This document shows positions 7,420 to 51,740 of a stretch of DNA of 64,000 nucleotides, piece after piece. The notes beneath the pieces are model-generated. The model was not told the DNA's origin. It did no database searches and saw only the letters and a program-made list of their open reading frames with translations. Both the position numbers and the translations under genes were made by a program. The first letter of the stretch is position 1. Each line of letters begins with the position of its first letter. The DNA is from Lentisphaeria bacterium (GTDB taxonomy: Bacteria; Verrucomicrobiota; Lentisphaeria; Victivallales; UBA1829), in assembly GCA_017615635.1 (NCBI GenBank), contig JAFZZR010000044.1, positions 36,176 to 100,175 on the forward strand, read 5' to 3'.

Positions 7420-9360
7420 TCAACTGCAGCCGGACAATAATTTCCGGGAAATGGCCGAGATCTCTTCGGAAAGTTTCTTTTTCTCTTCGGATCCGTCGGG
7501 CAGCGACATGGCATGCCGGATCAGACGCCGCTTTTTGTCCGAAAGAACGGTCCTGCGGATGGCTGTGAGACAGCTCCGGTAGATGCGGTCGGCATCGTCG
7601 GGCGGCTGAACATCGGCCTCGCGCATAAGCAGTCCGGAAATTTCGTCGTCCCGGATATTCTGGGACTCCATCATCATGGAGATCTGTTCGGGCGCCTCGT
7701 CCCACTCTCCGTTCATGGCGGCGCCGACGAGGGTCTCCAGCGCCCGGCCCGCGGGAGATTCGTCAAGCAGTTCGGCTTCGAGATCGCCGACCGCCCGCTG
7801 CGCATACGTTTCGGAGGCGAGCAGCAGGGAGAGCAGTTCGTAGAATGCCTGCCGCAAACCCGCATGGCGCATGGATAACGGCGGCTCCTTCCGGACAAAA
7901 TCCGACGCCGCCGATGACGTCTCCTTTTTGTCCTCCTGCCTTCCCGCATTCGAGGAATAGATCGCGGCCCGCTCTTTTTTTTCCTGTTCGGAACGGCGGT
8001 TCTTCTCGATTTCCGCCAGAATGAATTCCCTCGCAATGGAAAGTTTTCCGGCCAGCCAGTCCGCGTAGATTCCCTGGGTCACCGGGTTGTCGATGAGATG
8101 CAGATAGGCGGCAATTCCGGCGGCGGCCGCGGCTTTTCCCGCAGGAGAATCCAGATCCAGATCTTTTGTGATGTGACGGAACGCAAATTCGAAAAAGTCA
8201 TCCGCCTTCTCCACGGTCTCACGGAGAACATCGGCGCCTTGGGTCTTCAGAAGTTCATCGGCATCCTTCGCCCCGGGGAAGACAGCCACCCGGAGGGAAA
8301 ACCCCTTGGGCAGGAGAATGGCCGCATCCTTGAACACAGCCTCGCGTCCGGCCTTGTCATTGTCCAGCGCCAGGCAAATGGACTGCGTATACCGTCCGAG
8401 GATCGAGGCCTGTTCCTGACCGAACGCCGTCCCCTGAGGCGCGACGGCATTGGTACAGCCTGCCCGGTGCATGGCGATCACGTCAAGCTGGCCTTCGCAG
8501 AGAACGGCGCACTGCTTTTCACTGATGGCCCGGCGGGCGAAATTGAGCGCATAAAGGGTCCTGCTTTTCTTGAAGATGGGCGTCTCGGGACTGTTCACGT
8601 ATTTCCAGCCGCCGGGATCCGCCTCGATGCTCCGGGCGCTGAAGGCGACGACGCGGCCCTGTTCGTTCCAGATGGGGAACATGAGCCGGTTGCGGAACCG
8701 GTCGAATATGTGGGTTTCGTTCTCCGGCTTGGTGGAAACCACCCCCGACAGCCGGAGCTCCTTTTCCGTGAAACCTTCCTTTTTGGCAAAGAGAATGGCG
8801 GCGTCCCAGGAATCCGGAGAAGCCCCGATGGAAAACCGGGCCGCGGTTTCGGCCGGCAGACCGCGGGTGGCGAAGTAGCGTGCCACGGGGGAATCGGGAA
8901 AGTCGCGGAGCTGCGATGCATACCAGGCGGCAAGCTTTTCGTGAAGCAGAAAAAGCCGTTCCCGCAAAGCGTAGGAGGATTCCGGACTTTCCGCGGATCC
9001 CGAGGATGCGGCCGACCGGCCCCGTCCGAACCGGGCATTGGGCGGCGGCGTATCGGGAATGATGATATTGTATTTCCGGGCGAGGAGTTCCGCGGCATTG
9101 GGGAAATCGAGCTTCTCCATTTCCCGGATGAAGGTGAAGACGTTTCCGCCCTGGCCGCATCCAAAGCACTTGTATATGCCGCGCGCCGGATTCACCGTGA
9201 AGGAAGGCGTCTTCTCATGATGGAACGGACAGCACGCCTTCCAGAGAGAACCGGCCCTCTTCAGCGTGGGAACGTACGACTGGACCACCTCCACGATGTC
9301 GGCCCGCTGCCGGATGGTTTCCAGAACATCATCGGGAATATACCGGGCCATGGACGTCAC
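7420..9360 (-). CDS. dnaG: DNA primase
   Basis: 646 aa. Zinc ribbon CPFHHEKTPSFTVNPARGIYKCFGCGQGGN, RNA polymerase domain, and TOPRIM segments CEGQLDVIA and LALDNDKAGREA. Confidence 0.95.
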   Translation of the reverse strand: MTSMARYIPDDVLETIRQRADIVEVVQSYVPTLKRAGSLWKACCPFHHEKTPSFTVNPARGIYKCFGCGQGGNVFTFIREMEKLDFPNAAELLARKYNIIIPDTPPPNARFGRGRSAASSGSAESPESSYALRERLFLLHEKLAAWYASQLRDFPDSPVARYFATRGLPAETAARFSIGASPDSWDAAILFAKKEGFTEKELRLSGVVSTKPENETHIFDRFRNRLMFPIWNEQGRVVAFSARSIEADPGGWKYVNSPETPIFKKSRTLYALNFARRAISEKQCAVLCEGQLDVIAMHRAGCTNAVAPQGTAFGQEQASILGRYTQSICLALDNDKAGREAVFKDAAILLPKGFSLRVAVFPGAKDADELLKTQGADVLRETVEKADDFFEFAFRHITKDLDLDSPAGKAAAAAGIAAYLHLIDNPVTQGIYADWLAGKLSIAREFILAEIEKNRRSEQEKKERAAIYSSNAGRQEDKKETSSAASDFVRKEPPLSMRHAGLRQAFYELLSLLLASETYAQRAVGDLEAELLDESPAGRALETLVGAAMNGEWDEAPEQISMMMESQNIRDDEISGLLMREADVQPPDDADRIYRSCLTAIRRTVLSDKKRRLIRHAMSLPDGSEEKKKLSEEISAISRKLLSGCS

Positions 9361-10097
9361 CGGATGTTCTTGAACCGCTGCGAGACGGCGACGCGTTCCC
9401 GTTCCAGTTCCGGATTGCGGGCGGTAAGACGGAGATACTTGCTGTACAGTTCGACAGCCCGGTTTTTCTCGTTGAGATACCAGTCATGAATGATCGCCGC
9501 ATTGAGCACGGAAACAGGCAGAGTGGCGCGGCGGTCCAGAAGAAAGGCGAGCGCCTCGCGCGGTTTTCCCCGAAGCGCAAAGACAACGCCCAGCTCGTTG
9601 AAAACGACAGGACTGTTGACGAATGCGGGGAAGGAAAGAAGTTTCTTCTGATAGTCGGCGGCGTCCTTCGTGTTGAGACGAAGGGAGGCTTTCGCCAGAA
9701 GGATCAGGGTATTGATGTCCCGCGGAGATGCCTGCTCGGCTGCCTTCAGCGGCGCTATGCACTGCTCCATCCGTCCCTGCTTGAACAGCATGCGGCCCAG
9801 CGTGTACTGGACCATGAAATCGTTGGGATCGGACGCAATACTCTGCACGCGGTTGATCGCTTCTTCCAAATGGCCGTTGTTTTCCATTGCAAGCGCCGAA
9901 AACAGAAGGATATCGCGGTTCCCGGGCGCGATCTCCACGGCATCGTCGGAAATGGAAAGCGCCGACTTCCAGTCGCCCTGCTTTCCTGCGGCGATGGCAT
10001 CGGCGAGCAGCGCCGCGGGCGTTTTTTTCTCGGAAGAGCAGGCGGCGAGGAGAAGAAGGGAAGCGGCGGCGAAAAAGAAAGAACAGCGTCTCAGCAT
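9357..10097 (-). CDS. TPR-repeat lipoprotein
   Basis: 246 aa with a lipobox signal peptide (LLLLAAC|SS) and several TPR-like helical repeats. Its stop overlaps the dnaG start by 4 nt. Confidence 0.7.
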   Translation of the reverse strand: MLRRCSFFFAAASLLLLAACSSEKKTPAALLADAIAAGKQGDWKSALSISDDAVEIAPGNRDILLFSALAMENNGHLEEAINRVQSIASDPNDFMVQYTLGRMLFKQGRMEQCIAPLKAAEQASPRDINTLILLAKASLRLNTKDAADYQKKLLSFPAFVNSPVVFNELGVVFALRGKPREALAFLLDRRATLPVSVLNAAIIHDWYLNEKNRAVELYSKYLRLTARNPELERERVAVSQRFKNIR

Positions 10098-14068: not shown

Positions 14069-15505
14069 TCAGCTCACATTCGATCCGGATCCCGACAGTT
14101 CCTTCCGTCTCTTTTCTTCGTACCAGTGATACAGGATCAACGGGACGGCCATGAAGAAAAGCGACCCGAAGAGCAGGAACGCGATGTACAGGATCACCGC
14201 GTGCGTTCCTTCCGCCCGGACATTGCCGGTGGGGATGAACCCGACCGCAATAGCCAGAAGCGAGGTCAGAAACGCGATCCCGGCAACGATCCACATGCCG
14301 GCCTTTCCGCCGGGGATCTGATACGGACGGGGCACGTCCGCCCTGGAATACCGGAGCTTGATCGCCGCCGCAAACATGAACAGATACATGATCATATACA
14401 GCTGAGCGGTCAGGGCGGACATGATCCAGAAGGCGCCGCTGATGGTGGGCATGAAGAAGATCACCAGAGAAAGCACCGAGGAAATGGACGCCTGCAGAAT
14501 CAGGATCCGAGTCGGCATGCCGTTTTCGTTGCGGTGCTGCCAGTATTCCGGCAGATAGCCTTCCCGGGCCACTTCCAGAACTCCTTTGGAGGGACCGAGC
14601 ACCCAGGTCACGACCATGGTCAGCGCCCCATAGGCAAGCAGAAAACTGATGATCGGGGTCATCCAGCGGATGTGAAAGATCTGGAACATTTTGTCGAATG
14701 CCTGAAGCGCACCCGCGGCCAGGCTGATGTCATTCTCCGGAATCACCACGGCAATACCCAGCGATCCGAGGATGCTCAAGAGAATAATGACTGCACAGGA
14801 GATGAACACCGCCCGGGGAAAATTCTTCTTCGGTTCCTGCACATCGGTCACATGGACGGCGGACATCTCCATACCGGAAATCGCCACCATCATGCCGGAA
14901 AGCAGCATGATCTGATTCATGTTGTCCAGATTCGGCACCAGCGCTCCGGCCGAAAACGGAATGGAGCTGGGCTTGCCCATGATGAAAAACGCCAGCATCA
15001 GCAGAATGATCAGGACTCCGGGGATCAGCGTGCCGGCAATGGCGCCGGAACTGCTCAGGAATGCGGAAAGTTTCATTCCCCGGAAATTGAGGAACGTTGC
15101 CATCCACAGACTGACGATCACGACCAGGAACACGAACCAGCGGCTGGAGGCCAGCTTCGGATCGAATACGTAGGCAATGGCGGATGCCACGAACGTCAGC
15201 ACCGCGGGAAACCACGGCAGGTTCTCCACCCATTGCATGGCGATCGCCACGAATCCCCATTTCGGACCGAACGCTTCCTTCACCCACAGATACACGCCCC
15301 CGTCCTGCGGCCAGGCCGAGGCCAGTTCCGCCGATACCAGCGCCGACGGCAGAAAGAAGCAGATCGACGCCGCCGTAATGTAAAAGATGATGCTCCAGCC
15401 GTACTCCGCCTGGGACGGCAGATTCCGGATCGACAGCACAGCTGCCACGTTCAGCATGGCGAGCGTAAAAACACCCATGCCGGATTTTCTGATGATCGAA
15501 CTCAC
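14069..15505 (-). CDS. APC-superfamily amino-acid antiporter, GadC-like (glutamate:GABA antiporter family)
   Basis: 478 aa, about 12 TM segments. From memory, it aligns collinearly with E. coli GadC across GGVYLWVKEAFGPKWGF, the SAVHV region and LGPSKG. Lies immediately downstream of the decarboxylase gene. Confidence 0.85.
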   Translation of the reverse strand: MSSIIRKSGMGVFTLAMLNVAAVLSIRNLPSQAEYGWSIIFYITAASICFFLPSALVSAELASAWPQDGGVYLWVKEAFGPKWGFVAIAMQWVENLPWFPAVLTFVASAIAYVFDPKLASSRWFVFLVVIVSLWMATFLNFRGMKLSAFLSSSGAIAGTLIPGVLIILLMLAFFIMGKPSSIPFSAGALVPNLDNMNQIMLLSGMMVAISGMEMSAVHVTDVQEPKKNFPRAVFISCAVIILLSILGSLGIAVVIPENDISLAAGALQAFDKMFQIFHIRWMTPIISFLLAYGALTMVVTWVLGPSKGVLEVAREGYLPEYWQHRNENGMPTRILILQASISSVLSLVIFFMPTISGAFWIMSALTAQLYMIMYLFMFAAAIKLRYSRADVPRPYQIPGGKAGMWIVAGIAFLTSLLAIAVGFIPTGNVRAEGTHAVILYIAFLLFGSLFFMAVPLILYHWYEEKRRKELSGSGSNVS

Positions 15506-15547
15506 GTTTTTCCCCCTTCCGTTTGTTTATGACTGCGCAGCCCGGTT

Positions 15548-17851
15548 TCATTTCTTCCCGATGCACATGGTGGTGAAGACCGTTTTCCCGTTCACTCTCT
15601 CCCGTTCCACTCCGTGGATATCCCCTTCATATCCGGGGAACGCTTCCTCGAAAGCCTGACGGGCCAGCAGATAGTCCAGTATGGGGGCGGCCTTTTCGTT
15701 GAAGATCTCGCCGCCCATGATGACCGGGATCCCCGGGGGATACGGCACCATCATGACCGCCTGGATCCGGCCTCGGGCGCAAGAGAGTTCCACCCGCTCC
15801 ACGTTTTCCTGCACCACATGCCGATAGGCGTCCGCCGGTTTCATTGCCTGATCCGGAATGGTTTCGAATGCCGCCTGCATCTTATCCAGCAGATGATGCG
15901 CCCGGATCCATTCGTGCATGGCCTGGCAATGCTCCCGCAGGCCCGTATGGCAGTAGGCTTCCGGATGGGCCTCCACCAGTTCCGGAAAGACGCAGCAGAG
16001 CGGTTTGTCGGCATCGTAGTCCGCCTTGAATTTGAGCATGGCCGCCAGCAGAGTCCCCTGCTTGGCCCGCGTCGTTCCCAGAGAATTGAGCAGCAGGAAG
16101 GAATAGTAATCCGTTTTTTCGCATACGATGTTGTGCCGAATCAGATAATTGGTCAGAACCGGCGCCGGAATGCCCGTCTTTTCCATTTCACCCGATTCCG
16201 TCAGGCCCGGCGTCAACAAAGTCAGCTTGATGGGATCGAGCATGACATAATTTTCTTCGATATCTTCGAACCCGTGCCACGCATCGTCCCGGCGAAGCAC
16301 CCAGGGCTCCTGATGAGAAGAGAGGAATTCGGTGCAGGCATCTTCGAAACGGACCTTTTTCCCGTTCACGCAGACGCAGTCGGGCTGCCACATGCCGAAG
16401 AACCAGTCGTTCTTTTCCGCAAACTCGCGCCGGAGACGGGCGACCTCGCGGCGCAGCTGAACGGCCTCACGGATAATGTCATGCATCATGATCTCGCCGT
16501 TGTCGTGCATCATTTTTGTGGCGGTATCCAGCGACGCGATCATATTGTACTGCGGGGAGGTGGATCCGTGCATCATGTACGATTCGTTGAAGATCGATGG
16601 ATCGATTTTGACTTCTCCTCCGTTCCGGATGTGAAGCATCGACGCCTGGGAAAATGCCGTCAGCAGCTTATGGGTGGACTGGGAACAGAAGACCGGGGGA
16701 TCCTCCGGCCTGACAGGGCCGGATTCCATGCCGAAATGATCCCGGTACACCGGATGAAATTTTGCGTAGGCGTACCAGGCTTCATCGAAGTGAAGGTTTT
16801 CCACGCTCCGGCCCAGCTGCGCCTTGATTTTGACGGTATTGTAGCATAGTCCGTCGTACGTGGAATTGGTCAGCGCCGACATCCTGACTTTTTTCTGTCT
16901 TGATTCGGCGGGGATGATCGGACTCTTTTCGATTTTCGACCGGATGGATCCGGGCGTGAATTCGGAAAGCCGGACCGGACCGATAATGCCGCGCCTGTTG
17001 CGCCTCGGTATCATGTAGACGGGCAGCGCTCCCGTGATGGTCATGGCATAGTTGAGCGATTTGTGACAGTTGCGGTCCACCAGCGCAATGTCTCCGCAGA
17101 CCACCCGGCTGCGCCAGATGATCTGGTTCACCGTGGAGGTCCCGTTCAGCACATAGTACGTCTGATCCGCGCCGAACACCCGTGCGGAATTACGCTCGGC
17201 ATCGCCGGCCGCGCCCTCGTGGTCCAGAAGCGAACCCAGTTCCGGGACCGAGATCGAAAGATCCGAGCGGAACATATTTTCACCGAAAAATTTGTACAGC
17301 GCCACGCCCGCCGGACTCCGCAGAAAACCCTGTCCGCCGAGATGTCCCGGCGTATGCCATGCGTATTTGTACCTCTCGGCATACTTCACCAGCTCACCGA
17401 AAAATTCCGGATAGACCGATTTGACGTATTCCGACGCATGTTCCCGGATTCGGCCGGCCAGAAATTCCGCCGTGTCCGCCGTCTTCCACAGGCAGCCGTC
17501 GATCTTCGAAAGATCGGCCGCGGAAAGTTTTTCCGTTTCCAGCCGGTTCGTCAGCAGCAGAATCGGGATCGTGCGGTTCCGTCTGCGGATCTCGGTTGTC
17601 AGATCCGACGGATTTTCTTTTTCTCCGCTGTCCTCTTCAGGCAGATCCCAGTCCACCACGATCGCGCTGAGATCGGCGCGCGAGTGAAAGATCTCCGAGG
17701 CATCCTCATACGAGAATGACGGAATCACTTTGCATTGCTGCGCGGTTTCAAGTTCATGAATGATTTCCCGCTGGCGGAATCCGTTGTCGTTTTCCGCATT
17801 GAGTTCATGCGAGATGAACAGGATCGGCCATGCCGACATCGTGAGTTTCAT
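15548..17851 (-). CDS. Large biodegradative Orn/Lys/Arg decarboxylase (PLP fold type I, AdiA/CadA/SpeF family)
   Basis: ORF 15548..17914, start moved to MKLTMS at 17851, which follows a GGAGG Shine-Dalgarno. N-terminal CheY-like wing domain, PLP-lysine motif SQSTHKLL, and a C-terminal domain. Substrate cannot be assigned by eye. Confidence 0.9.
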   Translation of the reverse strand: MKLTMSAWPILFISHELNAENDNGFRQREIIHELETAQQCKVIPSFSYEDASEIFHSRADLSAIVVDWDLPEEDSGEKENPSDLTTEIRRRNRTIPILLLTNRLETEKLSAADLSKIDGCLWKTADTAEFLAGRIREHASEYVKSVYPEFFGELVKYAERYKYAWHTPGHLGGQGFLRSPAGVALYKFFGENMFRSDLSISVPELGSLLDHEGAAGDAERNSARVFGADQTYYVLNGTSTVNQIIWRSRVVCGDIALVDRNCHKSLNYAMTITGALPVYMIPRRNRRGIIGPVRLSEFTPGSIRSKIEKSPIIPAESRQKKVRMSALTNSTYDGLCYNTVKIKAQLGRSVENLHFDEAWYAYAKFHPVYRDHFGMESGPVRPEDPPVFCSQSTHKLLTAFSQASMLHIRNGGEVKIDPSIFNESYMMHGSTSPQYNMIASLDTATKMMHDNGEIMMHDIIREAVQLRREVARLRREFAEKNDWFFGMWQPDCVCVNGKKVRFEDACTEFLSSHQEPWVLRRDDAWHGFEDIEENYVMLDPIKLTLLTPGLTESGEMEKTGIPAPVLTNYLIRHNIVCEKTDYYSFLLLNSLGTTRAKQGTLLAAMLKFKADYDADKPLCCVFPELVEAHPEAYCHTGLREHCQAMHEWIRAHHLLDKMQAAFETIPDQAMKPADAYRHVVQENVERVELSCARGRIQAVMMVPYPPGIPVIMGGEIFNEKAAPILDYLLARQAFEEAFPGYEGDIHGVERERVNGKTVFTTMCIGKK

Positions 17852-18140
17852 TTTCCCCTCCTGGTTTTCAGTTGCGGCGGTACAGTTTCCCCTCCGTACC
17901 CGTTTACCATACACCGGAAAATGAAAAATGCAACCTTGTTTTCTTTTTATAACATGCTAACAATAAAACATATATGAGATTGTTTTTTCGGTTTCCCGCG
18001 AAACAAAATAAAATCCATTCGTGCTTCGGGACACGGATCCGCGTTTTTTTGAAAAAAATGCCCTTTCGACCCCTTCCGGGCAGCGGACCGGCACGGACGC
18101 ACTCCACATGAATCTGAAAAGAAAAATGTCGGCCGGACCG

Positions 18141-18183: not shown

Positions 18184-20640
18184 TTATTCCTGGCTGCAGC
18201 CTTGCAGATGCCGGATCACCAGCGCTTTTTCCAGCGTTTCCAGCGGAATATCGGAATCCGTCCGGAAGGTCAGATCGCGCGGCTTGTCAGGCAGAAGCGT
18301 GAAGCTGTTGTCCGAGAACACCGCCTGGATCCCGCGGAATTCCGCCAGCACGTAAAATGCGGCTTTCTCCGCCGTGAGCGCCAGGTGCATGACGCCCTGC
18401 TCATCGCGGTAGAGACGGGAGCGGATCCCGGGCTCGGACATCTGATATTCCTTGTATTTTGCCAGGAAACATTCGTTGGTGAAGCATACGGAACGGCCTT
18501 CGCACTCGCCCTGCAGTTCCAGGTACAGGAACTCCTGATCCGGTGCGGAGGAGAGTTCGGAGACGGGAATCGTTTCCAGCACGCCGGCGGAATACGCGGC
18601 CAGATCGACCTTGATCTTCCGCGAAGACCGGACCTCGCCCTCGATCCCGCGCACTTCCAGAGTCAGTTCGCCGCGGACAGCGCCGCCCAGATCGCTGGAC
18701 ATGCGGACCTCGACGGTTTCGGGCGTCTTGCGGATCGCGGCGGCCATGACCGGCGCGTAAAAGCGTTTCGCGTGATAATGAAGCTGTTTCCAGCTGCCGA
18801 AGAAGTCCAGGCTCGCCCAGGAGGCCACCGGCCAGTTGTCGTTGAGCTGCCAGTAGATGGTGCCCATGCACAACGGCTTCAGCGTGCGCCAGAATTCGAC
18901 TCCGGTCTTTATGGCCACCGCCTGCTGGACCTGACTCAGATAGATGAAATCTTCGAAGGTGGCGGGCAGACGGAAATACCGGGTGAACATTTCCACGATC
19001 TTGGAATTGCCGCCGTTGTTCCTCTGATGAAATTCCATAAGCGGCGAGGTGACGTTGCGCTGTTTCCCCTGCGTATAGAAATCCACCGTGTTCTGCGTGG
19101 GGAACGCCTGGAACCCGAACTCGGAACAGAATCTCGGCTCGATCTTGTAGTATTCCTCGAACGGCGCTCCGCTGTGCCAGACCTTCCAGAAGTGCATGTC
19201 TCCCTGGGAATCGTCGTCCCATCCGCTGGCGTCCCACTGGCTGTTGCACGGACTCGTGGGCCAGAATACGCGTGTCTTGTCGGCGGCGGCGACGGCTTTG
19301 CCCACAGCCTGATTGAACCGGTCGTAATTGAGCGTCCACGGAAGCTCCTTCGGCCCGGCTGACCTCAAAAACTGTCCGCATTCGTTGTCGCCGCACCAGA
19401 GAGCGATGGAGGCGTGATCGCGGAGCCGTTTGATCTGATAGTTCAGCTCCTGTGCCACGGATTCCAGAAATTCCGGTATGGCCGGATAATGGGCGCAGGC
19501 GAACATGCCGTCCTGCCACAGAAGGATGCCTTTTTCATCGCAGAGATCGTAGAAATCCTCGTTTTCATACAAACCGCCGCCCCAGACGCGCAGCGCGTTC
19601 ATGTTGGCCTCCACGGCATCGGAAAGAAGGCGGTCATATCTCTCCCGCGTGTAGGTCTGCGGCCGGGAGTCCATGGGAATCCAGTCCGCACCCTTTGCAA
19701 AGATATCGATCCCGTTAACCTGGAAATACAGGCAGATCCCGTGTTCATCCGGATGACTGACCGTTTTCAGGTCGCGCAGGCCGATCCGCTTCCGGATCCG
19801 GCAGGAATCCGCCGCGACTTCCAGATCGTAGAGCGGGTGCTCGCCGTACCCGGCGGGATACCACAGCTTCGGGTTTTTCACCGTAAACGAAGTCTCGACT
19901 TGGTTCAGACCCTTCCGCAGTTCCGCCGTTACGGTTTTCGTTTCCCCGTTGAACTTGAATTCCACAGCCTGTTCGCCATCGAAGTCCGAGTCGATCTCCG
20001 CCGTGACGTTCAGAAGACATTCGCCGGGCTTGTGCGCCTGCTCCGTGTATGCGTGCTCGATCCAGACCCCGTTGGAACCTTCCAGATAAACCTCGCCGTA
20101 CAGACCGCTGACAGGCATGCAGATCCCCCAGTCCCAGCCGCCCTGGCACTGGATCTTTCTTGCCAGATTCAGATTCGGCATGAAACGGAAGTAGCTTTTC
20201 GCGCCGAGCTTGAACGTGAGCTTTTCCTCGACCGCGGTGGTATACTCCTCCACGGGAGTGATGATCGCCTCGATGGTGTTTTCGCCCTCCCGGAGAAACT
20301 CCTTCACGTCCTGCCGGATCCGGCAGAACATGTTCCGGCTGGTGACCGCGGTCTTCCCGTTGATCCGGATCTCGCCGATGGTATCGAACGATTCCACGTT
20401 CAGCCAGATCCGTTTCTGCTTCAGAAAATCCTTGCTGACGTCAACGCGGCGCGTCCAGGTCCAGGTGTATTTGCGCACCCACTGAATGTCGCGTTCGTTG
20501 AACCCGATATTCGGATCGGATGCGATTCCGGCCTCGATCAGGGCGGTGCAGTTGTCGCCGGGAATTTGAGCCGGGATCGCCTGAAAATCCGCCTTGCTGC
20601 AGGTCAGGGTCCAGGTACCGGAAAGATCGATCTTCGTCAT
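18184..20640 (-). CDS. Glycoside hydrolase family 2 beta-mannosidase
   Basis: ORF 18184..20928, start moved to MTKIDLSG at 20640, which follows an AGGAGG Shine-Dalgarno. The N-terminus is typical of beta-mannosidases (LSGTWTL, IPAQIPGDNCTALIEAG). TIM-barrel segments WQDGMFAC and CSEFGFQAFP are present. No signal peptide. Confidence 0.88.
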   Translation of the reverse strand: MTKIDLSGTWTLTCSKADFQAIPAQIPGDNCTALIEAGIASDPNIGFNERDIQWVRKYTWTWTRRVDVSKDFLKQKRIWLNVESFDTIGEIRINGKTAVTSRNMFCRIRQDVKEFLREGENTIEAIITPVEEYTTAVEEKLTFKLGAKSYFRFMPNLNLARKIQCQGGWDWGICMPVSGLYGEVYLEGSNGVWIEHAYTEQAHKPGECLLNVTAEIDSDFDGEQAVEFKFNGETKTVTAELRKGLNQVETSFTVKNPKLWYPAGYGEHPLYDLEVAADSCRIRKRIGLRDLKTVSHPDEHGICLYFQVNGIDIFAKGADWIPMDSRPQTYTRERYDRLLSDAVEANMNALRVWGGGLYENEDFYDLCDEKGILLWQDGMFACAHYPAIPEFLESVAQELNYQIKRLRDHASIALWCGDNECGQFLRSAGPKELPWTLNYDRFNQAVGKAVAAADKTRVFWPTSPCNSQWDASGWDDDSQGDMHFWKVWHSGAPFEEYYKIEPRFCSEFGFQAFPTQNTVDFYTQGKQRNVTSPLMEFHQRNNGGNSKIVEMFTRYFRLPATFEDFIYLSQVQQAVAIKTGVEFWRTLKPLCMGTIYWQLNDNWPVASWASLDFFGSWKQLHYHAKRFYAPVMAAAIRKTPETVEVRMSSDLGGAVRGELTLEVRGIEGEVRSSRKIKVDLAAYSAGVLETIPVSELSSAPDQEFLYLELQGECEGRSVCFTNECFLAKYKEYQMSEPGIRSRLYRDEQGVMHLALTAEKAAFYVLAEFRGIQAVFSDNSFTLLPDKPRDLTFRTDSDIPLETLEKALVIRHLQGCSQE

Positions 20641-20939
20641 GATGCGGGATTCCTCCTTGATTTGTACGTGACTGTTCGTTGCGGAATCAATATAATGTCT
20701 CTTTCCCGTAAAAAAACTGGCTTTTTTGAAAAAAGATACTATATTGACATTAAAAGACGGCCCTGTCAAATCTCGCGACACCGGATTTCGGATGGATCCC
20801 GAAAAAGACGATGTCCGGAAGTTTGAGGCTGCTGCCCGGTGCGGCAACAGCCGAAAACGTACGGATACCGGACTTTCGGGAGACGCCGAAAGGCCCGTCA
20901 CGAGATTTGGCAGCGTCGTCTGAAACACCGGAAAATAAA

Positions 20940-21764
20940 ATGATACACCTGCCTGTCGGATCCGCTTTGCGCGGAAAAGAACGCTATCACTGCCATCTTT
21001 CCGTTTTCACCCGGGAGGAAAGTTTTCCCCTGCACGACCACGAATTCTATGAATTCTTCCTGGTCCTGGAGGGACGCCTGAAGCACATCTGCAACGGCGA
21101 AACTGTCATCTGCGAAACCGGCACCATCTGTTTTCTGCGGCCCGGCGACGCCCACGAACTGCATTGCGCTCCGGATTCCCCGCGGACAAAGATTTTGAAC
21201 TGCAACGTGCTGGGCGATGAAGTCCAGCGGCTTTTCCTGCATGTCACAAGCGACTGTCCCGTGGCTCTGGAGGACTGCGTTCAGCGGATCCTGCCGCCGC
21301 AGGCTCCGCTCCGTCAGGCGCTGCTGGAGGAGGCGGCCTCCCTCTCTCTGGCGGAAAACGACGGTCTGAAAACGGCCCGGCTCCGTATGCTCCTGGAAAA
21401 CATTCTTCTGCTTCTGATTCGGGGAAGCGGCTTCGATGCCAATCCCGCGCCCGACTGGCTCCGGACGGCCCGCCAGGCCATGCACGAACCCGCCAACTAC
21501 CGGGCGGGACTCCGCCGGTTCGTCGAACTCTCCGGACGGACGCAGGAGCATCTCTGCCGGGCGATGCGCCGCTACTACGCGGAATCCCCTCAGGAATGGC
21601 TGACGGCGCTTCGTCTGGATGCCGTATTCGATCGGCTCATGCTGCAGGGCGGCGATATTTCCGCGGCCGCGTTCGATGCCGGATTCCACAATCTTTCCTG
21701 GTTTCGCCGCGCCTTCCGGAAACGGTACGCGGTATCACCCAAGGAAGTTCGGAAACGAAGCTGA
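20940..21764 (+). CDS. AraC-family transcriptional regulator (cupin sensor plus HTH)
   Basis: ATG at 20940 within ORF 20811..21764. Cupin-like N-domain (PLHDHEFYEFFLVLEG) and a C-terminal double HTH (GFHNLSWFRRAFRKRYAVSPKE). Confidence 0.85.
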   Translation: MIHLPVGSALRGKERYHCHLSVFTREESFPLHDHEFYEFFLVLEGRLKHICNGETVICETGTICFLRPGDAHELHCAPDSPRTKILNCNVLGDEVQRLFLHVTSDCPVALEDCVQRILPPQAPLRQALLEEAASLSLAENDGLKTARLRMLLENILLLLIRGSGFDANPAPDWLRTARQAMHEPANYRAGLRRFVELSGRTQEHLCRAMRRYYAESPQEWLTALRLDAVFDRLMLQGGDISAAAFDAGFHNLSWFRRAFRKRYAVSPKEVRKRS

Positions 21765-21777: not shown

Positions 21778-22695
21778 TCAATCGTGAAGCACGGGAACAT
21801 CCGGCGGCAGAAAGGAACGCAGGACATCCGCGATGCGGTCCAGAGCCGCCGCATCCGGCGATTCCGCCTCGGGCATGGTGTTTTCCAGTCCGGCTGCCGC
21901 ATATTTTTCCCCGGCCAGAGAGTGATAGGCCAGCAGGCGGACTCGCTTCAGGGTCCCGATCCCGGCCAGCAGACGGCCGGTCTTTTCGATGTCGTCGGGG
22001 AAGTCGTTGCATCCCGGAACGATGGGCATGCGGATCTCCACAGACGTGCCGAACGCGGCGATTTTCCGGAGATTTTCATGGATGAGCGCGTTGTCCCGTC
22101 CCGTATTCCGCCGATGTCGTTCCGGATCCATTCCCTTGAGATCGAACAGCACCAGATCCGTATGAGGCAGGATCATCCGGTAATGCTCGAAATCCACCGC
22201 CCCGCAGGTATCCAGCGCCGTGGAAATGCCCGCCTCCTTCAGTTTCCGGAACAGCCCGGAAACGAACTCCGGATACAGCGCGGGCTCGCCGCCGGAAAGC
22301 GTCACGCCGCCTTCCGGGACGAAGTAATCCCGGTCCTTCACGAGTTTTGTGAAAAGCTCCTCCACGGACATCTTCACGCCGCAGATCTCCAGCGCATTGA
22401 AAAGACAGGCCCGCACGCACGCCCCGCAGAGACGGCATGCCTCCCGGTTCAGCGTGTGCCGTCCTTCCGGAGTAAAGGCGTGCACCCCGTTCGGACAAGC
22501 CCGCATACATGCCCCGCAGCCAGTGCAGAGTTTTTCGTGGAAAAGAATCCGGGGCGCCGCAGAGATGCTTTCCGGATTGTGGCACCAGAGACAGCGCAGG
22601 GGGCAGCCCTTGACGAATACGGTATCACGCACGCCCGGTCCGTCGTGGATGGTGAGGCGCCGGACGGCGGCGACGGGGATTTTTCCGGAGTTCAC
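21778..22695 (-). CDS. Glycyl-radical enzyme activating protein (radical SAM, with extra ferredoxin-like clusters)
   Basis: 305 aa. Radical-SAM CPLRCLWCHNPE, two additional Cys clusters (CTGCGACMRACP and CRLCGACVRAC), and the GGVTLSGGEP SAM motif. Starts 4 nt after the GRE stop. Confidence 0.93.
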   Translation of the reverse strand: MNSGKIPVAAVRRLTIHDGPGVRDTVFVKGCPLRCLWCHNPESISAAPRILFHEKLCTGCGACMRACPNGVHAFTPEGRHTLNREACRLCGACVRACLFNALEICGVKMSVEELFTKLVKDRDYFVPEGGVTLSGGEPALYPEFVSGLFRKLKEAGISTALDTCGAVDFEHYRMILPHTDLVLFDLKGMDPERHRRNTGRDNALIHENLRKIAAFGTSVEIRMPIVPGCNDFPDDIEKTGRLLAGIGTLKRVRLLAYHSLAGEKYAAAGLENTMPEAESPDAAALDRIADVLRSFLPPDVPVLHD

Positions 22696-22699
22696 GGTA

Positions 22700-24862
22700 T
22701 CAGCTCCTGCTTTCCGCTTCGGTGATGAAGGTTTCCTGCACGTGCGGCGGCAGGTCGATGAACCGGACGTTCCATCCGCAAAGCCGGATCTGCAGATTGC
22801 GGTACTGTTCCGGATCCTTCTGCGCGGCCCGCAGGACGGCCGGCGAAAGCACGTTGAACTGGATGAATAGGCCGCCCCGCTCGAAGAAGGTGCGGATCAA
22901 CCTCACGATCAAATTAATTCCGGCATCGCCCGCCACGGACCGGGGCGAAAGCATGACATCCAGCACGGAGCCGTCGGCAAAGAGGGTGTGATCCAGCGCG
23001 GATGCGCTGTCCAGAAGACCGGCGATGCCTTCGGCGTCGCAGCCCGAGGTGCTCAGCACGTTCCGCGAGATCGGATCGCCGGAGTGGCGTCCGTCCGGCG
23101 TGGCTCCGGTTTCGCGCCCGAAGATGTAAGACCAGTCGATGGACCAGAGTCCCATCTGATAGAATCCGCCCTTGGCGTTGGGCGTGTGCATGATCTGATC
23201 GCCGGCCCGTTCCGCAATGATCTTCGCGGGCGAATCCGCCGAATCGATGCCGTTCCCCCATTTCGGCGCCCGTTTCGCCGCCAGCAGCCGAAGCGGTTCC
23301 TGTCCCTCCCAGTTCGAGGCAAGGATCCTGCCCAGCTCGGCAAAGGAGACTCGTTTCTCCTCGAAAACAAGTTCCCGGATCGCCGCCAGAGAATCCGCCG
23401 CGGTTCCGATCCCGGCGCACATGACGCCGCTGGTGACGTACTTTGTCCCGTACTGCGAAACATCCAGACCGCGCACCATGCATTCATCCATGGTTCCGGA
23501 GAGGAGCGGAGCGGGAGAGACCCGGTTCCAGTCCTTTTCCAGCAGATTCGCCTTTTCCATGGATTCGGCCAGACGGCATTCCATGAGCTCCAGGAATTTG
23601 TGGAAGACCTCATCGAAGGTTTTCGGCGTGAACCCGGGATCGGAAAAGAGTTCCGGGAAGAGTCCGGCGAAGTTGAACAGAATGGTCATGGTGCAGGAAA
23701 GTTCCTTGCCCATGATCGCCGGTTCATAGCAGCCCACAGGAAGAAAATTCGCCAGGTCGCGGGGTTCCTTTCCGTGCCTCAAAAACATCTTCCGGGCGGT
23801 TTCTTCGCAGGCGAAGACCATGGAGGATTTTCCTTCGCGGATGCACTCCGCCGCGAAGGCGAGCACGTCGTCGGGCGTTTTGGCGTTGACGCGAAGCGAA
23901 AATTTCGGATCGATCCGCCCCAGATCCCGGAAGACTTTCCAGGCTAGCCGGGTCAACCCGCAGCAGCCGTCTTCCGCCGTTTCCGGATCGTCCGAGGGAA
24001 GCAGTCCGCCGAAGCAGAAGGGCGTGCCGTTGTCTTTTCCCTGCGATTGAACCAGAAAGCGGGAGAAATAGGCGGTCAGGAGTTCTTCCGCGCTCTCCGC
24101 AGTCAAGCGGCCCGAAGCCAGATCGGCTTCGTAAAACCGGCGGTACATCCGGTCGAAGATCCCCATGGAGCGGACCCATTCGCCCTCGATTTCCTGAATT
24201 TCGCGGTAAAGAAGACCCAGTTCCAGCGCCTGACGGAGCGTCTCCGGCGCATGATCCGTCAGAAACGTGAGCATCTCCTTCAGATCGGCGCGGCCGCTTC
24301 GCCCGGACAGGTCCGCAAACCGCAGAAGAAAATCGCGGAAAGCCGTATAGACGATCCGCACCGACTCGGCAAAGGGCGACGGCTTTTCCCGGCACAACGT
24401 TTCCGCCCGGGCCAGCAGACCGGGGATCCCCAGGTTCAGCAGATTATCCCAGTCGGGCGAGGTGTGACTCAAATCCAGACGGCTCCGGTAGAGCCCCTTC
24501 ACCGCCGCTTCCATGCCGGATGCCCGGTCCCCGAATGCGGCTCGTGCAGACGCTTTTTTCCGCTCGTTCTGAATGACGATGATTTCGTTTGCCGGACTTG
24601 GACTCAATGTCTGCCGTTCCACCAGCGAGGCGAAGGGATCGAAATCGTTGACGGCGATCCGGACGTTCTGCAGGAAGCACTCCACCATCCGCGCCCGGGT
24701 CACGGCAAAGGGAACGCCCTGTCGCTCGTTTTCCGTGTAGAGGTCCCGGATTTTCTGCCTCAATTCCTCCGGGGGAAGCCCTTCGGCGGCAGCAAAGACC
24801 TCCGGATCATAGCAGTGATCCATTTTTTTGAGGAAATCCTCGCGTTTCACATCCATCATCAT
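22700..24862 (-). CDS. Glycyl-radical enzyme, PFL2/glycerol-dehydratase-like family; compact, substrate unknown
   Basis: 720 aa. Cys loop LPVGCYEP (Cys-x-Glu) and C-terminal glycyl-radical loop YRNLQIRLCGWNVRFIDL. General PFL2 architecture. Confidence 0.9.
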   Translation of the reverse strand: MMMDVKREDFLKKMDHCYDPEVFAAAEGLPPEELRQKIRDLYTENERQGVPFAVTRARMVECFLQNVRIAVNDFDPFASLVERQTLSPSPANEIIVIQNERKKASARAAFGDRASGMEAAVKGLYRSRLDLSHTSPDWDNLLNLGIPGLLARAETLCREKPSPFAESVRIVYTAFRDFLLRFADLSGRSGRADLKEMLTFLTDHAPETLRQALELGLLYREIQEIEGEWVRSMGIFDRMYRRFYEADLASGRLTAESAEELLTAYFSRFLVQSQGKDNGTPFCFGGLLPSDDPETAEDGCCGLTRLAWKVFRDLGRIDPKFSLRVNAKTPDDVLAFAAECIREGKSSMVFACEETARKMFLRHGKEPRDLANFLPVGCYEPAIMGKELSCTMTILFNFAGLFPELFSDPGFTPKTFDEVFHKFLELMECRLAESMEKANLLEKDWNRVSPAPLLSGTMDECMVRGLDVSQYGTKYVTSGVMCAGIGTAADSLAAIRELVFEEKRVSFAELGRILASNWEGQEPLRLLAAKRAPKWGNGIDSADSPAKIIAERAGDQIMHTPNAKGGFYQMGLWSIDWSYIFGRETGATPDGRHSGDPISRNVLSTSGCDAEGIAGLLDSASALDHTLFADGSVLDVMLSPRSVAGDAGINLIVRLIRTFFERGGLFIQFNVLSPAVLRAAQKDPEQYRNLQIRLCGWNVRFIDLPPHVQETFITEAESRS

Positions 24863-24889
24863 TCTTTTCCTCTGCCTTCCCTCGATGCG

Positions 24890-26032
24890 TCAGTGTCCGG
24901 TCGTCAGAAGATTGGTTACTCTGATCCCCGTACCGTGGCCCGGTTCGAAAAACGGCTCGTCCGCCAGATGGACATGTCCTTCGGGCGTCGTATGATCGAT
25001 CACATACTCGATGCTGCCCCGCCAGCGTCCCGGAATACTTTCCGTGGCCCGATGACGGCCTTCCAGAAAATCCGGCGCCTTCCGGTCGGTGTGACCCGGA
25101 CAGGTGTTGGGCCACTGCAGATTCATGGCACGGATTGTCACGCTCTGCGGAGAACCGGGAGACGCATGGCCGAAACGGGGCATGTTGACATTGTGTTCGT
25201 CCAGAAGATTCACGCAGTAAACGGGATAGAAGCATCCGCCGAAACAGGTCTCCCGGCCATCCCCGAAATTCCTTCTGCCGCGGTATCCGTTGAAGGAAAA
25301 ACCGTATATATTGTAAAGCGCTGAAAGACTTTCGCAATAAACATGTTCGCCGCCGATATCAAAACCGACTCCAAAGCCCAGCGCCGCCAGATTCTTCCAT
25401 TCCGAGCGGGCCATGAAATTGCTCCCCGCCGTCCCCCGGAACGCCACGCTCTCCGGATGAGGTACCGGGATGCCGCTGCTGGTGGCGAAATCGAATGAGT
25501 TGACGGGGAGGGACGTCACCCAGATTCCCTCATAGGTCAGTGCGCTGCAGGTACTTCCATCGAACACCACCACCGGTTTCCCGTTGCCGGGAAGACGCAC
25601 CGCCAGGTTCCGGATCGTCCATGCCCGGCCGAACAGATCGTTGCCGTCGCAGTAAAAGAGGGAGAACGGCTCCTCGTCCGAGAGATCCGCATAGAGATCG
25701 TCGCCCATCACAATGACCGCGCCGTTCTGGAAGCCGAGCGGTTCCACAACCCCTTCCAGCGTATGAAAGATACCCTGATTGTGCGCATAGGAACTGCCCG
25801 TCCGCGGCCGGTCGTTGAAAAAGACGATCCCGCCGGAAGGATTCCGGGTCCCGCGGGAATTGATGACGTACGTTCCCTTCAGCAGAATGCATTTTACGCA
25901 CAGCCTTCCCGCTTCGTCGATGGCGCGCTGAAGCGTTTCCCGGGCGTCGTTTTCGGGACAGATGTACCGGGCCGCCGTTTTCAGTTCGTCCGGCGTATCG
26001 AAGGCGGCGCAAACGATATTTCCATCACTCAT
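24890..26032 (-). CDS. Hypothetical cytoplasmic protein co-transcribed with the GRE (possible beta-helix-like fold; unassigned)
   Basis: ORF 24890..26206, start moved to MSDGNIV at 26032. 380 aa, no signal peptide, Cys- and Gly-rich C-terminal half (ETCFGGCFYPVYC, NTCPGH). Ends 27 nt before the GRE start. I recognise no family. Confidence 0.6.
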   Translation of the reverse strand: MSDGNIVCAAFDTPDELKTAARYICPENDARETLQRAIDEAGRLCVKCILLKGTYVINSRGTRNPSGGIVFFNDRPRTGSSYAHNQGIFHTLEGVVEPLGFQNGAVIVMGDDLYADLSDEEPFSLFYCDGNDLFGRAWTIRNLAVRLPGNGKPVVVFDGSTCSALTYEGIWVTSLPVNSFDFATSSGIPVPHPESVAFRGTAGSNFMARSEWKNLAALGFGVGFDIGGEHVYCESLSALYNIYGFSFNGYRGRRNFGDGRETCFGGCFYPVYCVNLLDEHNVNMPRFGHASPGSPQSVTIRAMNLQWPNTCPGHTDRKAPDFLEGRHRATESIPGRWRGSIEYVIDHTTPEGHVHLADEPFFEPGHGTGIRVTNLLTTGH

Positions 26033-26149
26033 TTTTTCAAGTCTCTCGGTTTTTTTTGCTATTTTAGCATGCCGACCTTCTTTTTTCAAGGCCGAATCGT
26101 ACAAAAAACCATGGTTAAATCGTCTCACATCCCCTTTTGCGGACGCCCT

Positions 26150-26216
26150 CCCAGACAAAACAAAACGGGGTGATTTCGGCAGCTGTCCGACGGGACAGCC
26201 TCGCAATCACCCCGTT
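26150..26216 (-). terminator. Rho-independent terminator downstream of rhaA
   Basis: Perfect 12-bp outer stem AACGGGGTGATT/AATCACCCCGTT enclosing an inner CTGTCC/GGACAG hairpin. On the minus strand it is followed by TTTTGTTTTGTCT. Begins about 40 nt after the rhaA stop. Confidence 0.6.
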
Positions 26217-26258: not shown

Positions 26259-27515
26259 TCACCCTCTGGCGGAGAGCACCTGCTTTTCGTAGGCGCGGAT
26301 CTCGTTCATGAAATCGAAATCCGAAGGAACGCCCCGACGCTCGCACCACTCGTTCCAGACCAGACCCCAGGGCAGCGTTTTGGCCGCTTCCTGAAGAGCC
26401 AGACGGGTTGTACCGTCGAGGCTGCGCTCCGCCTCTTTTGCCCCGGCTGGCTCCAGCAGGGCGACGAGCAGGGCCTTCTGGAAATCGCGGGCGCCGATGA
26501 CCCAGGCGGCGATCCGGTTGATCGTGGCGTCGAAATAATCCAGTCCGAAATGGATCTTGTCCAGGTATCCGTAGGAAACCGATTCCCGCGCCAGACTCAG
26601 AAGCTCATCGTTGACGACGATGACATGATCCGAATCCCAGCGGACGCCGCGGCTGACATGCAGGAATATCTCATCCATGAGGCAGAAGATCGCCGAGAGC
26701 TTGTCTCCGACCTGTTCGGTGGGATGGAAGTGCCCGGTATCGAAGCAGAGGATCTTGCCGCGGCTGGCCGCATAGAGCATATAGAACTCGTGAGAGCCGA
26801 CGGTGCAGGATTCCACTCCGATCCCGAAGAGCTTCTGCTCCACCGTGTCCCGTTCATACGCGGCGTCGATCTTTTCCGCGAAACAGCGGTCCAGGGATTC
26901 CATCATGCGTTTCCGGGGCGTAAAACGGTCCGCCGGCGTATCCTTGAAGCCGTCCGGCATCCAGAAATTGACAATGGCCGGGGAGCCGAGCTCACGGCCG
27001 AACGTTTCGCCGATCTTCCGGCAGGCGATCCCGTGATTGATCCAGAATTCCCGGATCGCGGGATCCGGATGCGCCAGCGAAAGATTGTGATCCAGCTTGT
27101 CGTGTCCGTAGAATGCGGGCGCGATATCCAGGCCGATCTTCTTTTCCTTCGCCCAGTCCAGCCACGACCGGAAGTTTTCGATCGTGAAGCCGTCGCGGTC
27201 CACGCCCGGCAGCATCCGGTCGACCTGATGTCCCTGAAGCCCCACGCGATGGTGTCCCGGAATCAGCTTCAGCGCAAGGTCGAGATCCTTCCGGAGTTCG
27301 TCGGCGTTGCGGGCACGGCCCGGATAGTTTCCGGTGACTTGACAGCCGCCGGTCAGGGTGAAAGAGTCCTTCTCGAATCCACGGACGTCATCGCCCTGCC
27401 AGGCATGGATCCCCAGTTCCACCTTGTCCAGGACGGACATGGCCTTTTCCACGTCCACGCCCAGATTTCCGTACATATCCTTCGCCGCCGCGAAAAGTTC
27501 CTGATTCCGACTCAT
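26259..27515 (-). CDS. rhaA: L-rhamnose isomerase
   Basis: ORF 26259..27542, start at MSRNQ (27515). Collinear with E. coli RhaA: HAWQGDDVRGFE, LTGGCQVTGNYPGRARNADELRKDL, FDTGHFHPTE and VRWDSDHV. Confidence 0.92.
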   Translation of the reverse strand: MSRNQELFAAAKDMYGNLGVDVEKAMSVLDKVELGIHAWQGDDVRGFEKDSFTLTGGCQVTGNYPGRARNADELRKDLDLALKLIPGHHRVGLQGHQVDRMLPGVDRDGFTIENFRSWLDWAKEKKIGLDIAPAFYGHDKLDHNLSLAHPDPAIREFWINHGIACRKIGETFGRELGSPAIVNFWMPDGFKDTPADRFTPRKRMMESLDRCFAEKIDAAYERDTVEQKLFGIGVESCTVGSHEFYMLYAASRGKILCFDTGHFHPTEQVGDKLSAIFCLMDEIFLHVSRGVRWDSDHVIVVNDELLSLARESVSYGYLDKIHFGLDYFDATINRIAAWVIGARDFQKALLVALLEPAGAKEAERSLDGTTRLALQEAAKTLPWGLVWNEWCERRGVPSDFDFMNEIRAYEKQVLSARG

Positions 27516-27683
27516 TTTCCGTTCCTTTCCCTGTCCTGACATGTTGCGTGATATACGCGCGGAAAAGGCCTCGTTTTTCGGGGCGTCCGCGCCTTTTCCC
27601 GTAAGATACAGCGCGGCGGCTCTTTTGTCAATTCCCGGCTCAAAAAAAATTGTGTTTTTATAGGCGGAAGGTCTTCCCCGCCA

Positions 27684-51705: not shown

Positions 51706-51740
51706 AAAATATCCTTTTTCGTTTTTTGGTGAAGTCCAGA

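Follow-up and report, generated by a model that had tools for sequence, protein, structure and literature searches.

On the minus strand of the window analysed here, a stretch of 64,000 nucleotides (64 kb) from a Lentisphaeria bacterium, three closely packed genes encode a glycyl-radical enzyme (GRE), its activase and a 380-amino-acid protein that we call X. Our work shows that the GRE, as judged from its sequence and those of its relatives, belongs to a coherent, distinct and uncharacterised clade of short (about 700 to 720 amino acids) GREs, and that X folds, according to structure models and profile searches, into a right-handed beta-helix that stands alone and has its homologues in the C-terminal domains of phage virion and tail-spike proteins. 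We propose, with slightly more confidence than doubt, that the genes form a compact, probably AraC-regulated catabolic operon in which X would release a sugar-derived molecule and the GRE would cleave a C-O bond in the product. GREs give anaerobes chemistry beyond ordinary enzymes. Sugars joined the known GRE substrates only recently, via PflD/YbiW ("anhydroglycolysis"). Whole GRE clades are still without an assigned function (2026 superfamily review, PMC13450708). The three genes are:

21778..22695, minus strand: activase gene (305 amino acids; open reading frame with TIGR02494, Radical_SAM and Fer4 matches)
22700..24862, minus strand: GRE gene (720 amino acids; open reading frame with PFL-like and Gly_radical matches)
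24890..26032, minus strand: X gene (380 amino acids; raw open reading frame 24890-26206, start placed by homologue alignment)

The spacing described in an earlier note on this DNA, i.e. 27 nucleotides between X and the GRE gene and four between the GRE and activase genes, agrees with the open reading frame coordinates. The activase is clearly a standard GRE-activating radical-SAM enzyme by its predicted protein: It reaches 305 bits against TIGR02494 (cut-off 174) and has Radical_SAM, Fer4 and Fer4_12 domains (Pfam, NCBIfam), its translation contains CPLRCLWC and CxxCxxCxxxC, the latter twice, and its insert is of the ferredoxin-like two-cluster type. The earlier description as a ferredoxin-domain radical-SAM activase is thus correct. 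It is the sole activase homologue in the window.

A distinct clade of short glycyl-radical enzymes

The GRE matches the Pfam domains PFL-like (PF02901, 229 bits) and Gly_radical (PF01228, 64 bits), and the predicted protein carries the full radical relay: the thiyl Cys378 and the C-x-E Glu380 lie in the Cys loop LPVGCYEPAI (motif GCYEP), and the radical Gly696 lies in the Gly loop NLQIRLCGWNVRF (motif IRLCGWNV). Both loops align with those of PflD, YbiW and glycerol dehydratase. The thiyl loop VGCYEP that had been read from the DNA is present in the translation, and C378-Y-E380 is invariant across the short clade, as are Arg181, Arg231, Lys320, Tyr379, Tyr475, Asp490, Asn601 and Asp635. The C-x-E motif is common to C-O, C-N and C-S eliminases and isomerases, its Glu is the general base, and His164 of glycerol dehydratase protonates the leaving hydroxyl (PMC13450708, where the motif is defined). 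His133 of the window GRE (SHTSPDW) aligns with the G-H motif His of glycerol dehydratase and HypD (CutC has Asp at this position), and we infer from the alignment numbering that this His is residue 164 of glycerol dehydratase. The glycyl loop IRLCGWNV had been regarded as non-canonical: its sequence stands, yet it fits the general pattern R-x-x-G-[FWY]. Its Leu and Asn are clade-specific, and the Trp after the radical Gly is also present in A. fulgidus PFL2. The fold is canonical, since the AlphaFold2 (AF2) model superposes on all eliminases and isomerases with template modelling (TM) scores of about 0.85: the model (predicted local distance difference test, pLDDT, 91.3) gives Foldseek TM scores of 0.80-0.88 to solved GREs, and of about 0.85 to PflD, glycerol dehydratase and A. 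fulgidus PFL2 at 22-24% identity.

Several lines of evidence set this GRE apart as a subfamily of its own, as had been suspected. First, it misses every NCBIfam equivalog cut-off widely: TIGR01774 (PFL2/glycerol dehydratase) gives 278 bits (cut-off 678), the HypD model 231 (cut-off 1100), the PflD-type model NF007437 223 (cut-off 1109) and the CutC model 160 (cut-off 1050), and over the HypD, CutC, HpfG/HpsG, HPAD, IAD and PFL equivalogs the scores range from 62 to 231 bits against cut-offs of 994-1150. The best PDB sequence matches do not exceed 220 bits at 21-25% identity, so that by sequence the protein appears about equally distant from all characterised C-x-E eliminases and isomerases. 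Second, 231 proteins match the GRE at E <= 1e-30 among 5.8 billion clusters, and in nearly all of the 120 homologues listed and examined the signatures SHT[S]PDW, [IV]GCYEP and [IV]R[LV]CGW[NS] are kept; the median length of these 120 is 710 amino acids, and the sources named among them are Kiritimatiellae, Victivallales, Lentisphaeria and Planctomycetes. When a clade profile is scored against A. fulgidus PFL2, CutC, HypD, PflD and the glycerol and propanediol dehydratases, all of them reach much the same value (435-454 bits). Third, the reported shortness holds: 720 amino acids compare with 765-843 in solved eliminases and isomerases, and compared to PflD/YbiW, the GREs of the clade are missing some 35 residues close to the N-terminus and another 11-12 residues. 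Seven X-linked GREs that were scored have 689-730 amino acids and reach 229-381 bits with TIGR01774, all under the cut-off. Finally, all short GREs, including the divergent neighbours of X in Clostridia, form one group in a neighbour-joining tree, apart from E. coli PflD, YbiW and PflB. Clustering with a characterised GRE, the outcome that would have spoken against a separate subfamily, was seen neither in the scores nor in the tree nor in the PDB identities. In open-access searches we found no literature on the short clade, on GREs combined with nucleoside hydrolases or on GREs in Kiritimatiellae.

The GRE is thus predicted to work like a C-x-E eliminase or isomerase, yet it sits in no characterised family. 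The best single-sequence and structural match in the PDB is of the PflD/YbiW type (8YJO, 220 bits, Foldseek TM 0.85), i. e. of the GRE isomerases that act as C-O lyases on 1,5-anhydromannitol-6-P and 1,5-anhydroglucitol-6-P, and both the C-x-E motif and the G-H motif His are kept. PflD/YbiW act on a carbohydrate derivative and do so without a microcompartment (PMC13450708). The differences are nevertheless considerable: the identity is 25%, the window GRE is about 45-90 amino acids shorter, and PflD/YbiW have the loops GCVE/GCIE and RVAGYS in place of GCYEP and RLCGWN. The E. coli loci contain genes for a phosphotransferase system (PTS), fructose-6-P aldolase and a phosphatase with no counterpart in the window, whereas the partners of the window GRE clade are glycosidase-like proteins. 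A. fulgidus PFL2 (2F3O) is the top match of the clade profile (454 bits) and shares the Trp after the radical Gly (RVAGWSAYF); we know of no glycosidase context for this protein. It is a GRE of disputed function (PMC13450708) and differs by 24% identity, a length of 776 amino acids, a GCVE Cys loop and its archaeal origin.

Fold and relatives of the partner protein X

In the earlier note, the 380-amino-acid protein could not be placed in any family. This holds for Pfam, NCBIfam and PDB sequences and also for PHROG, none of which gave a match to X, and among 40 X homologues tested there was not a single Pfam match at E <= 5; by these sequence searches and as far as curated libraries go, X represents a new protein family. 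It does not hold for fold and remote homology, which point to a tail-spike-type beta-helix. The placement became possible because a library of viral structures and a profile search over 1.84 billion representative proteins found relatives. The AF2 model of X (pLDDT 92.6) consists mostly of serial beta strands, and its Foldseek matches in the PDB are nearly all tail spikes or enzymes with a right-handed beta-helix, joined by a few adhesins and capsid proteins. Among predicted viral structures, two gut-phage proteins (UniProt A0A8S5R9W6 and A0A8S5U7D9), one of them annotated as tail spike, match X strongly over the full length of the domain (TM 0.77-0.79, E 1e-15 to 1e-16, 21-22% identity). Among the 417 relatives that the profile search found, those outside the core clade have the whole X domain (about profile positions 4-382) as the C-terminal part of proteins of 600-1300 amino acids, several of which match phrog_16313 ("virion structural protein") over the X region, some with tail-fibre or collagen-like N-termini. 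In contrast to these phage proteins, X is free-standing without a virion-attachment or collagen-like part, and the X of the window is cytoplasmic and is encoded in a catabolic operon instead of a prophage. One relative of 706 amino acids (P0216) carries the X domain fused to a second beta-helix domain, Pect-lyase_RHGA_epim (PF12708).

The conservation pattern suggests that X is an enzyme. Among 138 distant relatives, 95-99% retain Glu229-His230 (GGEH) and Glu279 (DEHN), and about 80-85% retain Lys152, Glu331 and Asn275; the alignment of homologues also reveals several conserved Cys and His residues and an N-terminal motif of the pectate-lyase-like type. Since the Glu-His...Glu arrangement is kept across distant relatives, the phage proteins included, it would represent a shared catalytic or metal site, and Glu229-His230 and Glu279 are the candidate catalytic or metal-binding residues. 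The related phage proteins carry no assigned activity. The beta-helix enzymes acting on carbohydrates, i. e. GH28, GH49, GH82, GH91, polysaccharide lyases and the AlgE4 epimerase, have the same general fold as X, but their catalytic residues cannot be equated with those of X. From fold and conserved residues, we predict that X is a glycoside-cleaving enzyme, either a hydrolase or a lyase. A phage tail-spike-type domain without a Pfam family would thus work as a cellular catabolic enzyme. Signal peptides are present in 21 of 95 X homologues.

Linkage of X to the GRE and its carbohydrate context

Core-clade X proteins (46-98% identity) were found at 22 distinct loci, which are given here by L numbers; the metagenome and genome scans for X returned 8 and 12 loci, few because the pattern step was strict. 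That the pairing of X and GRE might recur in other genomes had been raised before, and it does: a GRE of the short clade lies within 5 kb of X in 14 of the 22 loci, both in bacteria of the Planctomycetes-Verrucomicrobia-Chlamydiae (PVC) group and in Clostridia (the window together with L031; L002/3/26; L025; L001; L004; L005/34/35; L033; L006; L009; L011; L015; L028; L030; L032). The gene order varies (X-GRE-activase, activase-GRE-X, GRE-X, opposite strands), and the gaps between X and GRE are often only a few to tens of nucleotides. Operons with X and a GRE 86-98% identical to that of the window occur in L002/L003, L025 and L031. The hosts of the X loci include metagenome-assembled genomes of Clostridia and Oscillospiraceae as well as PVC bacteria, with ruminants and horses among the animals whose guts were the source. 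Since the short GRE clade is rare with its 231 proteins, a chance adjacency of X and GRE is very unlikely. An AraC-type gene flanks the pair in L002, L004, L006, L009, L015, L021, L023 and L031, and L002 and L004 are minimal modules of AraC gene, X, GRE and activase with no other carbohydrate-metabolism gene.

X and the GRE are not obligately linked. No GRE accompanies X in L007/L038, L008/L037, L013, L014, L027 and L029, and in total 8 of the 22 loci lack the GRE, three of them being truncated close to X. Conversely, L021, L022 and L023/L024 have the GRE without X, and no X homologue was found in the GRE-only loci L021-L024 at E <= 10. L023, whose GRE is the next closest relative with 76% identity, is one of these; in L023/L024 a 76%-identical beta-mannosidase adjoins the GRE gene (the copy in L031 is 98% identical). 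L029 and L011 are close relatives that share the order of an 899-amino-acid protein, X, GH39 and a protein of 750-785 amino acids without known function (L029 2228-9786, L011 4707-15032), and only L011 has a GRE between the 899-amino-acid gene and X, which shows a recent gain or loss of the GRE. Moreover, X is 55-61% identical between phyla whereas the linked GREs are 29-38% identical, which suggests modular recruitment rather than strict co-evolution. The separate occurrence of X and the GRE would fit the idea that X and the GRE act on different molecules and merely share glycan-utilisation islands, as would the many different glycosidases around both genes. We regard this idea as unlikely, but by no means as negligible: it has to account for an adjacency in 14 of 22 loci with tight gaps, differing orders and two phyla, for the minimal modules L002 and L004, and for the rarity of the GRE clade among 5.8 billion clusters. 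In L015 (9992-11160), the X gene is split at about 10393 into open reading frames of 134 and 255 amino acids by a frameshift, which reflects either a pseudogene or an assembly error.

The same data bear on a possible role of X as a chaperone of the GRE or as one of its subunits, structural or accessory, in analogy to the small subunits of benzylsuccinate synthase (BSS) or 4-hydroxyphenylacetate decarboxylase (HPAD). Accessory subunits are known for some GREs (PMC13450708), and the 27-nucleotide spacing, the conserved adjacency and the conserved Cys and His residues of X are compatible with such a role. However, about a fifth of the X homologues carry signal peptides, X stands alone beside other glycosidases, and most of the sampled clade GREs without X still have their activase. 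The known GRE subunits (BSS beta/gamma, HPAD gamma, MASS delta) are small Fe-S or metal-binding proteins that are always co-encoded with the catalytic subunit and bound to it, and none of them resembles a 380-amino-acid tail-spike-type beta-helix with Glu-His...Glu. We give this idea very little credence and have rejected it on the signal peptides and the independent occurrence of the two proteins. Since the linkage is not obligate and signal peptides occur, X is no obligate subunit of the GRE, and the role of a pathway enzyme that acts earlier in the same pathway is favoured.

A carbohydrate-derived substrate, for which the neighbouring genes had been taken as a hint, is supported by the context. 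Glycosidases surround the X/GRE pair in nearly every locus (GH2, GH78, GH63-like, GH127, GH36, GH39, GH28, GH20, GH5, GH31), and further neighbours are GDSL esterases, sugar-binding proteins, a PTS EIIC component, a GFO/IDH/MocA (GH109-like) oxidoreductase and ADP-ribosylglycohydrolase-family proteins. In addition, at two loci (L033 and L034/35) the GRE adjoining X is a fusion protein of 1067-1074 amino acids with an N-terminal IU_nuc_hydro-like (nucleoside-hydrolase-like) domain and a short-clade GRE with the motifs SHTCPDW, VGCYEPG and VRVCGWNV. The fusion genes, which lie beside secreted X paralogues, are:

L033 2352-5576: IU_nuc_hydro-GRE fusion
L034 4237-7440: IU_nuc_hydro-GRE fusion
L035 6649-8412: IU_nuc_hydro-GRE fusion (cut)
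L005 1-1422: IU_nuc_hydro-GRE fusion (cut)

As a glycosidase-like domain is fused here to the GRE itself, this is the strongest single hint that the substrate of the GRE is released by glycoside hydrolysis. L023 has a free-standing IU_nuc_hydro-like domain close to its GRE, L017 has one adjoining an X-like gene, and no nucleoside-hydrolase-like gene was found in the 64-kb window. It is conceivable that the substrate of the GRE is not a carbohydrate but, for example, a compound that resembles hydroxyproline or bears an amine, and that the glycosidases are misleading. The better matches in NCBIfam and the PDB include HypD-type models, and the minimal modules lack a sugar kinase or transporter. 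This idea is highly doubtful in view of the HypD equivalog score (231 against 1100), the carbohydrate context at nearly every locus, the fusion to a glycosidase-like domain and a regulator that resembles sugar-responsive AraC members by its NCBIfam scores (ChbR 96 bits, RhaS 59 bits, both under the cut-off).

The fusion proteins start with hydrophobic signal-peptide-like stretches (L034 4237-4300, L033 2352-2440; MIALLAVALALRPVGAF..., MIRPSRIALSLMIAWGSVPAY...), which could result from a miscalled start codon or be a real export or anchor signal. To our knowledge, an exported GRE would be unprecedented, and an extracellular system, as might be read from these N-termini and the signal peptides of the X neighbours, is very unlikely, to the point of being barely worth entertaining.

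The elements that flank the operon in the window are:

18184..20628, minus strand: GH2 beta-mannosidase homologue (Pfam GH2 and mannosidase Ig domains; PDB beta-mannosidases 6BYE, 474 bits, and 2JE8, 458 bits)
20811..21764, plus strand: AraC-family regulator (cupin sensor domain and HTH_18 in Pfam and NCBIfam; convergent with the operon)
26061..26089, minus strand: promoter-like site TTGAAA-17-TAAAAT with upstream TG, 29 nucleotides before the X start codon (consensus match only)
26155..26216, minus strand: intrinsic terminator after rhaA, from sequence and RNA fold, parting rhaA from X-GRE-activase
26259..27542, minus strand: L-rhamnose isomerase RhaA (PF06134, 563 bits; NF002203, 585 bits, cut-off 572), a transcription unit of its own

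Pfam and NCBIfam thus confirm the neighbours that had been named before, and the GH2 protein is a true beta-mannosidase homologue. The AraC-family gene is the probable regulator of the operon. The terminator that had been placed at 26150-26216 is real as well: a long hairpin rich in GC (about 26216-26164) precedes the U-run UUUUGUUUUGU, and the intergenic RNA after rhaA folds with -97.6 kcal/mol (z = -7.1 compared to shuffles). It was missed by a simple terminator scanner and found from sequence and RNA folding. The alignment with 39 homologues places the X start at the ATG at 26032; the longer upstream open reading frame would cross the terminator.

The vicinity of rhaA raises the question whether the GRE is an ordinary B12-independent propanediol/glycerol dehydratase that serves rhamnose fermentation via lactaldehyde and propanediol, with X being incidental. 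Indeed, rhaA is the next gene upstream and has the same orientation, the best PDB matches include glycerol dehydratase, and the window GRE shares with glycerol and 1,2-propanediol dehydratases the fold, the C-x-E motif, the conserved His and an activase with ferredoxin-like insert. The location of a GRE near rhaA in a PVC-type bacterium is also reminiscent of GRM5, the fucose/rhamnose microcompartments. Yet the GRE is shorter and only 22-23% identical to these dehydratases, it falls far short of TIGR01774 (278 against 678) and is not a propanediol dehydratase by score, and the equivalent of Asp447 is Met. Moreover, the strong terminator isolates rhaA from the operon, and neither rhaB, rhaD, aldehyde dehydrogenase nor shell genes were found beside the operon. 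The lack of shell genes nearby had been noted before, and phmmer searches with E. coli EutM/N/K/L/S found no shell homologue in the window at E <= 10 and none in the loci L001-L035 at 1e-3. Aldehyde-processing genes are likewise lacking. The rhaA gene is not part of the conserved module: it lies behind the terminator, and its adjacency is limited to the window and the 98%-identical L031 and does not recur in L002, L023 or any other locus. We give little credence to a propanediol or glycerol dehydratase in the service of rhamnose fermentation and have rejected this function on scores, terminator and the lack of shell genes.

A proposed pathway and further observations

Based on these results, we suggest the following sequence of events for the catabolic operon, whose host is probably a gut or rumen anaerobe of the PVC group and similar to Kiritimatiellae. 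X would split a glycosidic bond of an oligosaccharide or glycoside taken up by the cell, acting outside the cytoplasm in about a fifth of the homologues, and its sugar-derived product would be the substrate of the GRE. There, the thiyl radical would take a hydrogen from a hydroxyl-bearing carbon, Glu380 would deprotonate the hydroxyl on that carbon, and the resulting ketyl radical would expel the oxygen substituent of the neighbouring carbon with His133 as acid, either in a dehydration or in a ring or ether C-O cleavage as in PflD/YbiW. The product radical would retake hydrogen from Cys378, and the keto or deoxy product would enter central metabolism. The beta-mannosidase and other nearby glycosidases may feed the same pathway; beta-mannoside-derived and ribosyl-type compounds are substrate candidates, but leads only. 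It is tempting to speculate that the short GCYEP/RxCGWN clade represents a new radical route, i. e. a ketyl-radical beta-elimination on a free, non-phosphorylated sugar or glycoside that is fed directly by glycosidase-like partners not recognised before: the tail-spike-derived X and, in some bacteria, the fused nucleoside-hydrolase-like domain. Such a route could involve ring-opening, deoxygenation or the cleavage of a resistant ether or glycosidic C-O bond. This extension is tentative, and we hold it with clearly more doubt than conviction.

In addition to the loci in which X and the GRE are not linked, several points weigh against the proposed pathway. The PDB matches of X are weak (TM 0.3-0.4, E > 1e-3), X matches no characterised CAZy family, and its conserved Glu and His residues could bind a metal or a ligand instead of hydrolysing. 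In the GRE, a Met (...SCTMT...) occupies the position aligned to Asp447 of glycerol dehydratase, which we take to be an important substrate-binding residue. The characterised members in the neighbour-joining tree are only E. coli PflD, YbiW and PflB, and the distance to other GREs is deduced from profile and PDB scores. The module has no conserved transporter, kinase or downstream enzyme from which a pathway could be reconstructed, and the co-location of X and GRE may reflect shared membership in glycan loci and not consecutive reactions.

The short clade is a tractable target: it is compact, has its own activase and no tie to a microcompartment, and it resides in glycan-degradation loci of rumen and gut bacteria. 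Two independent hints to the substrate are available, i. e. the conserved beta-helix partner and the fusion to the nucleoside-hydrolase-like domain, and the identity of the substrate could reveal a missing step in the anaerobic breakdown of plant, host or microbial glycans.

Several further observations concern the X and GRE loci. In L001, a gene pair directly upstream of X (7927-9944) encodes RpiB/LacAB and a fusion of ROK kinase and ribulose-phosphate-3-epimerase, which by analogy may be reminiscent of an allose kinase/isomerase/epimerase set, and the genes on either side of the GRE encode an FAD oxidoreductase and a 3HCDH-family dehydrogenase. ADP-ribosylglycohydrolase-family proteins (PF03747, 490-568 amino acids), another ribosyl-type hydrolase family in X loci, recur beside X in Clostridia (L008/L037 11196-12839, L009 13817-15289). 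A conserved protein of 800-813 amino acids without Pfam match follows the fusion GRE or a second X (L033 5610-8015, L034 8894-11335, L005 2876-5317), and a separate family of 722-785 amino acids without known function recurs after X-GH39 in L010, L011 and L029. L021 (1087-8942) contains, beside its short-clade GRE, a second GRE locus with a 784-amino-acid PFL-like protein (no Gly_radical match on record), an activase, an FGGY kinase, a GntR regulator, a phosphomannose-isomerase-like protein and a 410-amino-acid NosD/Beta_helix protein. Here again a GRE is paired with a beta-helix protein, in this case one that is unrelated to X in profile searches.

The window itself encodes a second, unrelated short C-x-E GRE (58720-60969, minus strand, about 731-749 amino acids) with PFL-like and Gly_radical domains, which is 25% identical to the first one. 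It has the motifs ISHTTADF, DGCWEII and VVRISGWSARF, lacks the ATPDGR motif, and its best PDB matches, spread over all eliminases, score about 150-215 bits. Its neighbours are an AraC-type regulator and an SGNH/GDSL-like open reading frame (61090-61983, plus strand, and 61926-62984, minus strand), and it has no activase of its own, the one at 21778-22695 being the only homologue in the window. Rfam and tRNA scans of the window were empty. A low-GC island at about 50000-54300 (0.42-0.46 compared to about 0.59), which may have been acquired horizontally, contains genes for a PD-(D/E)XK nuclease-family protein (50497-51705), an unannotated protein of 231 amino acids and a Sel1-repeat protein. Finally, at 14069-17914 an Orn/Lys/Arg decarboxylase (788 amino acids) adjoins an amino-acid permease, an arrangement typical of acid-resistance or polyamine export pairs.

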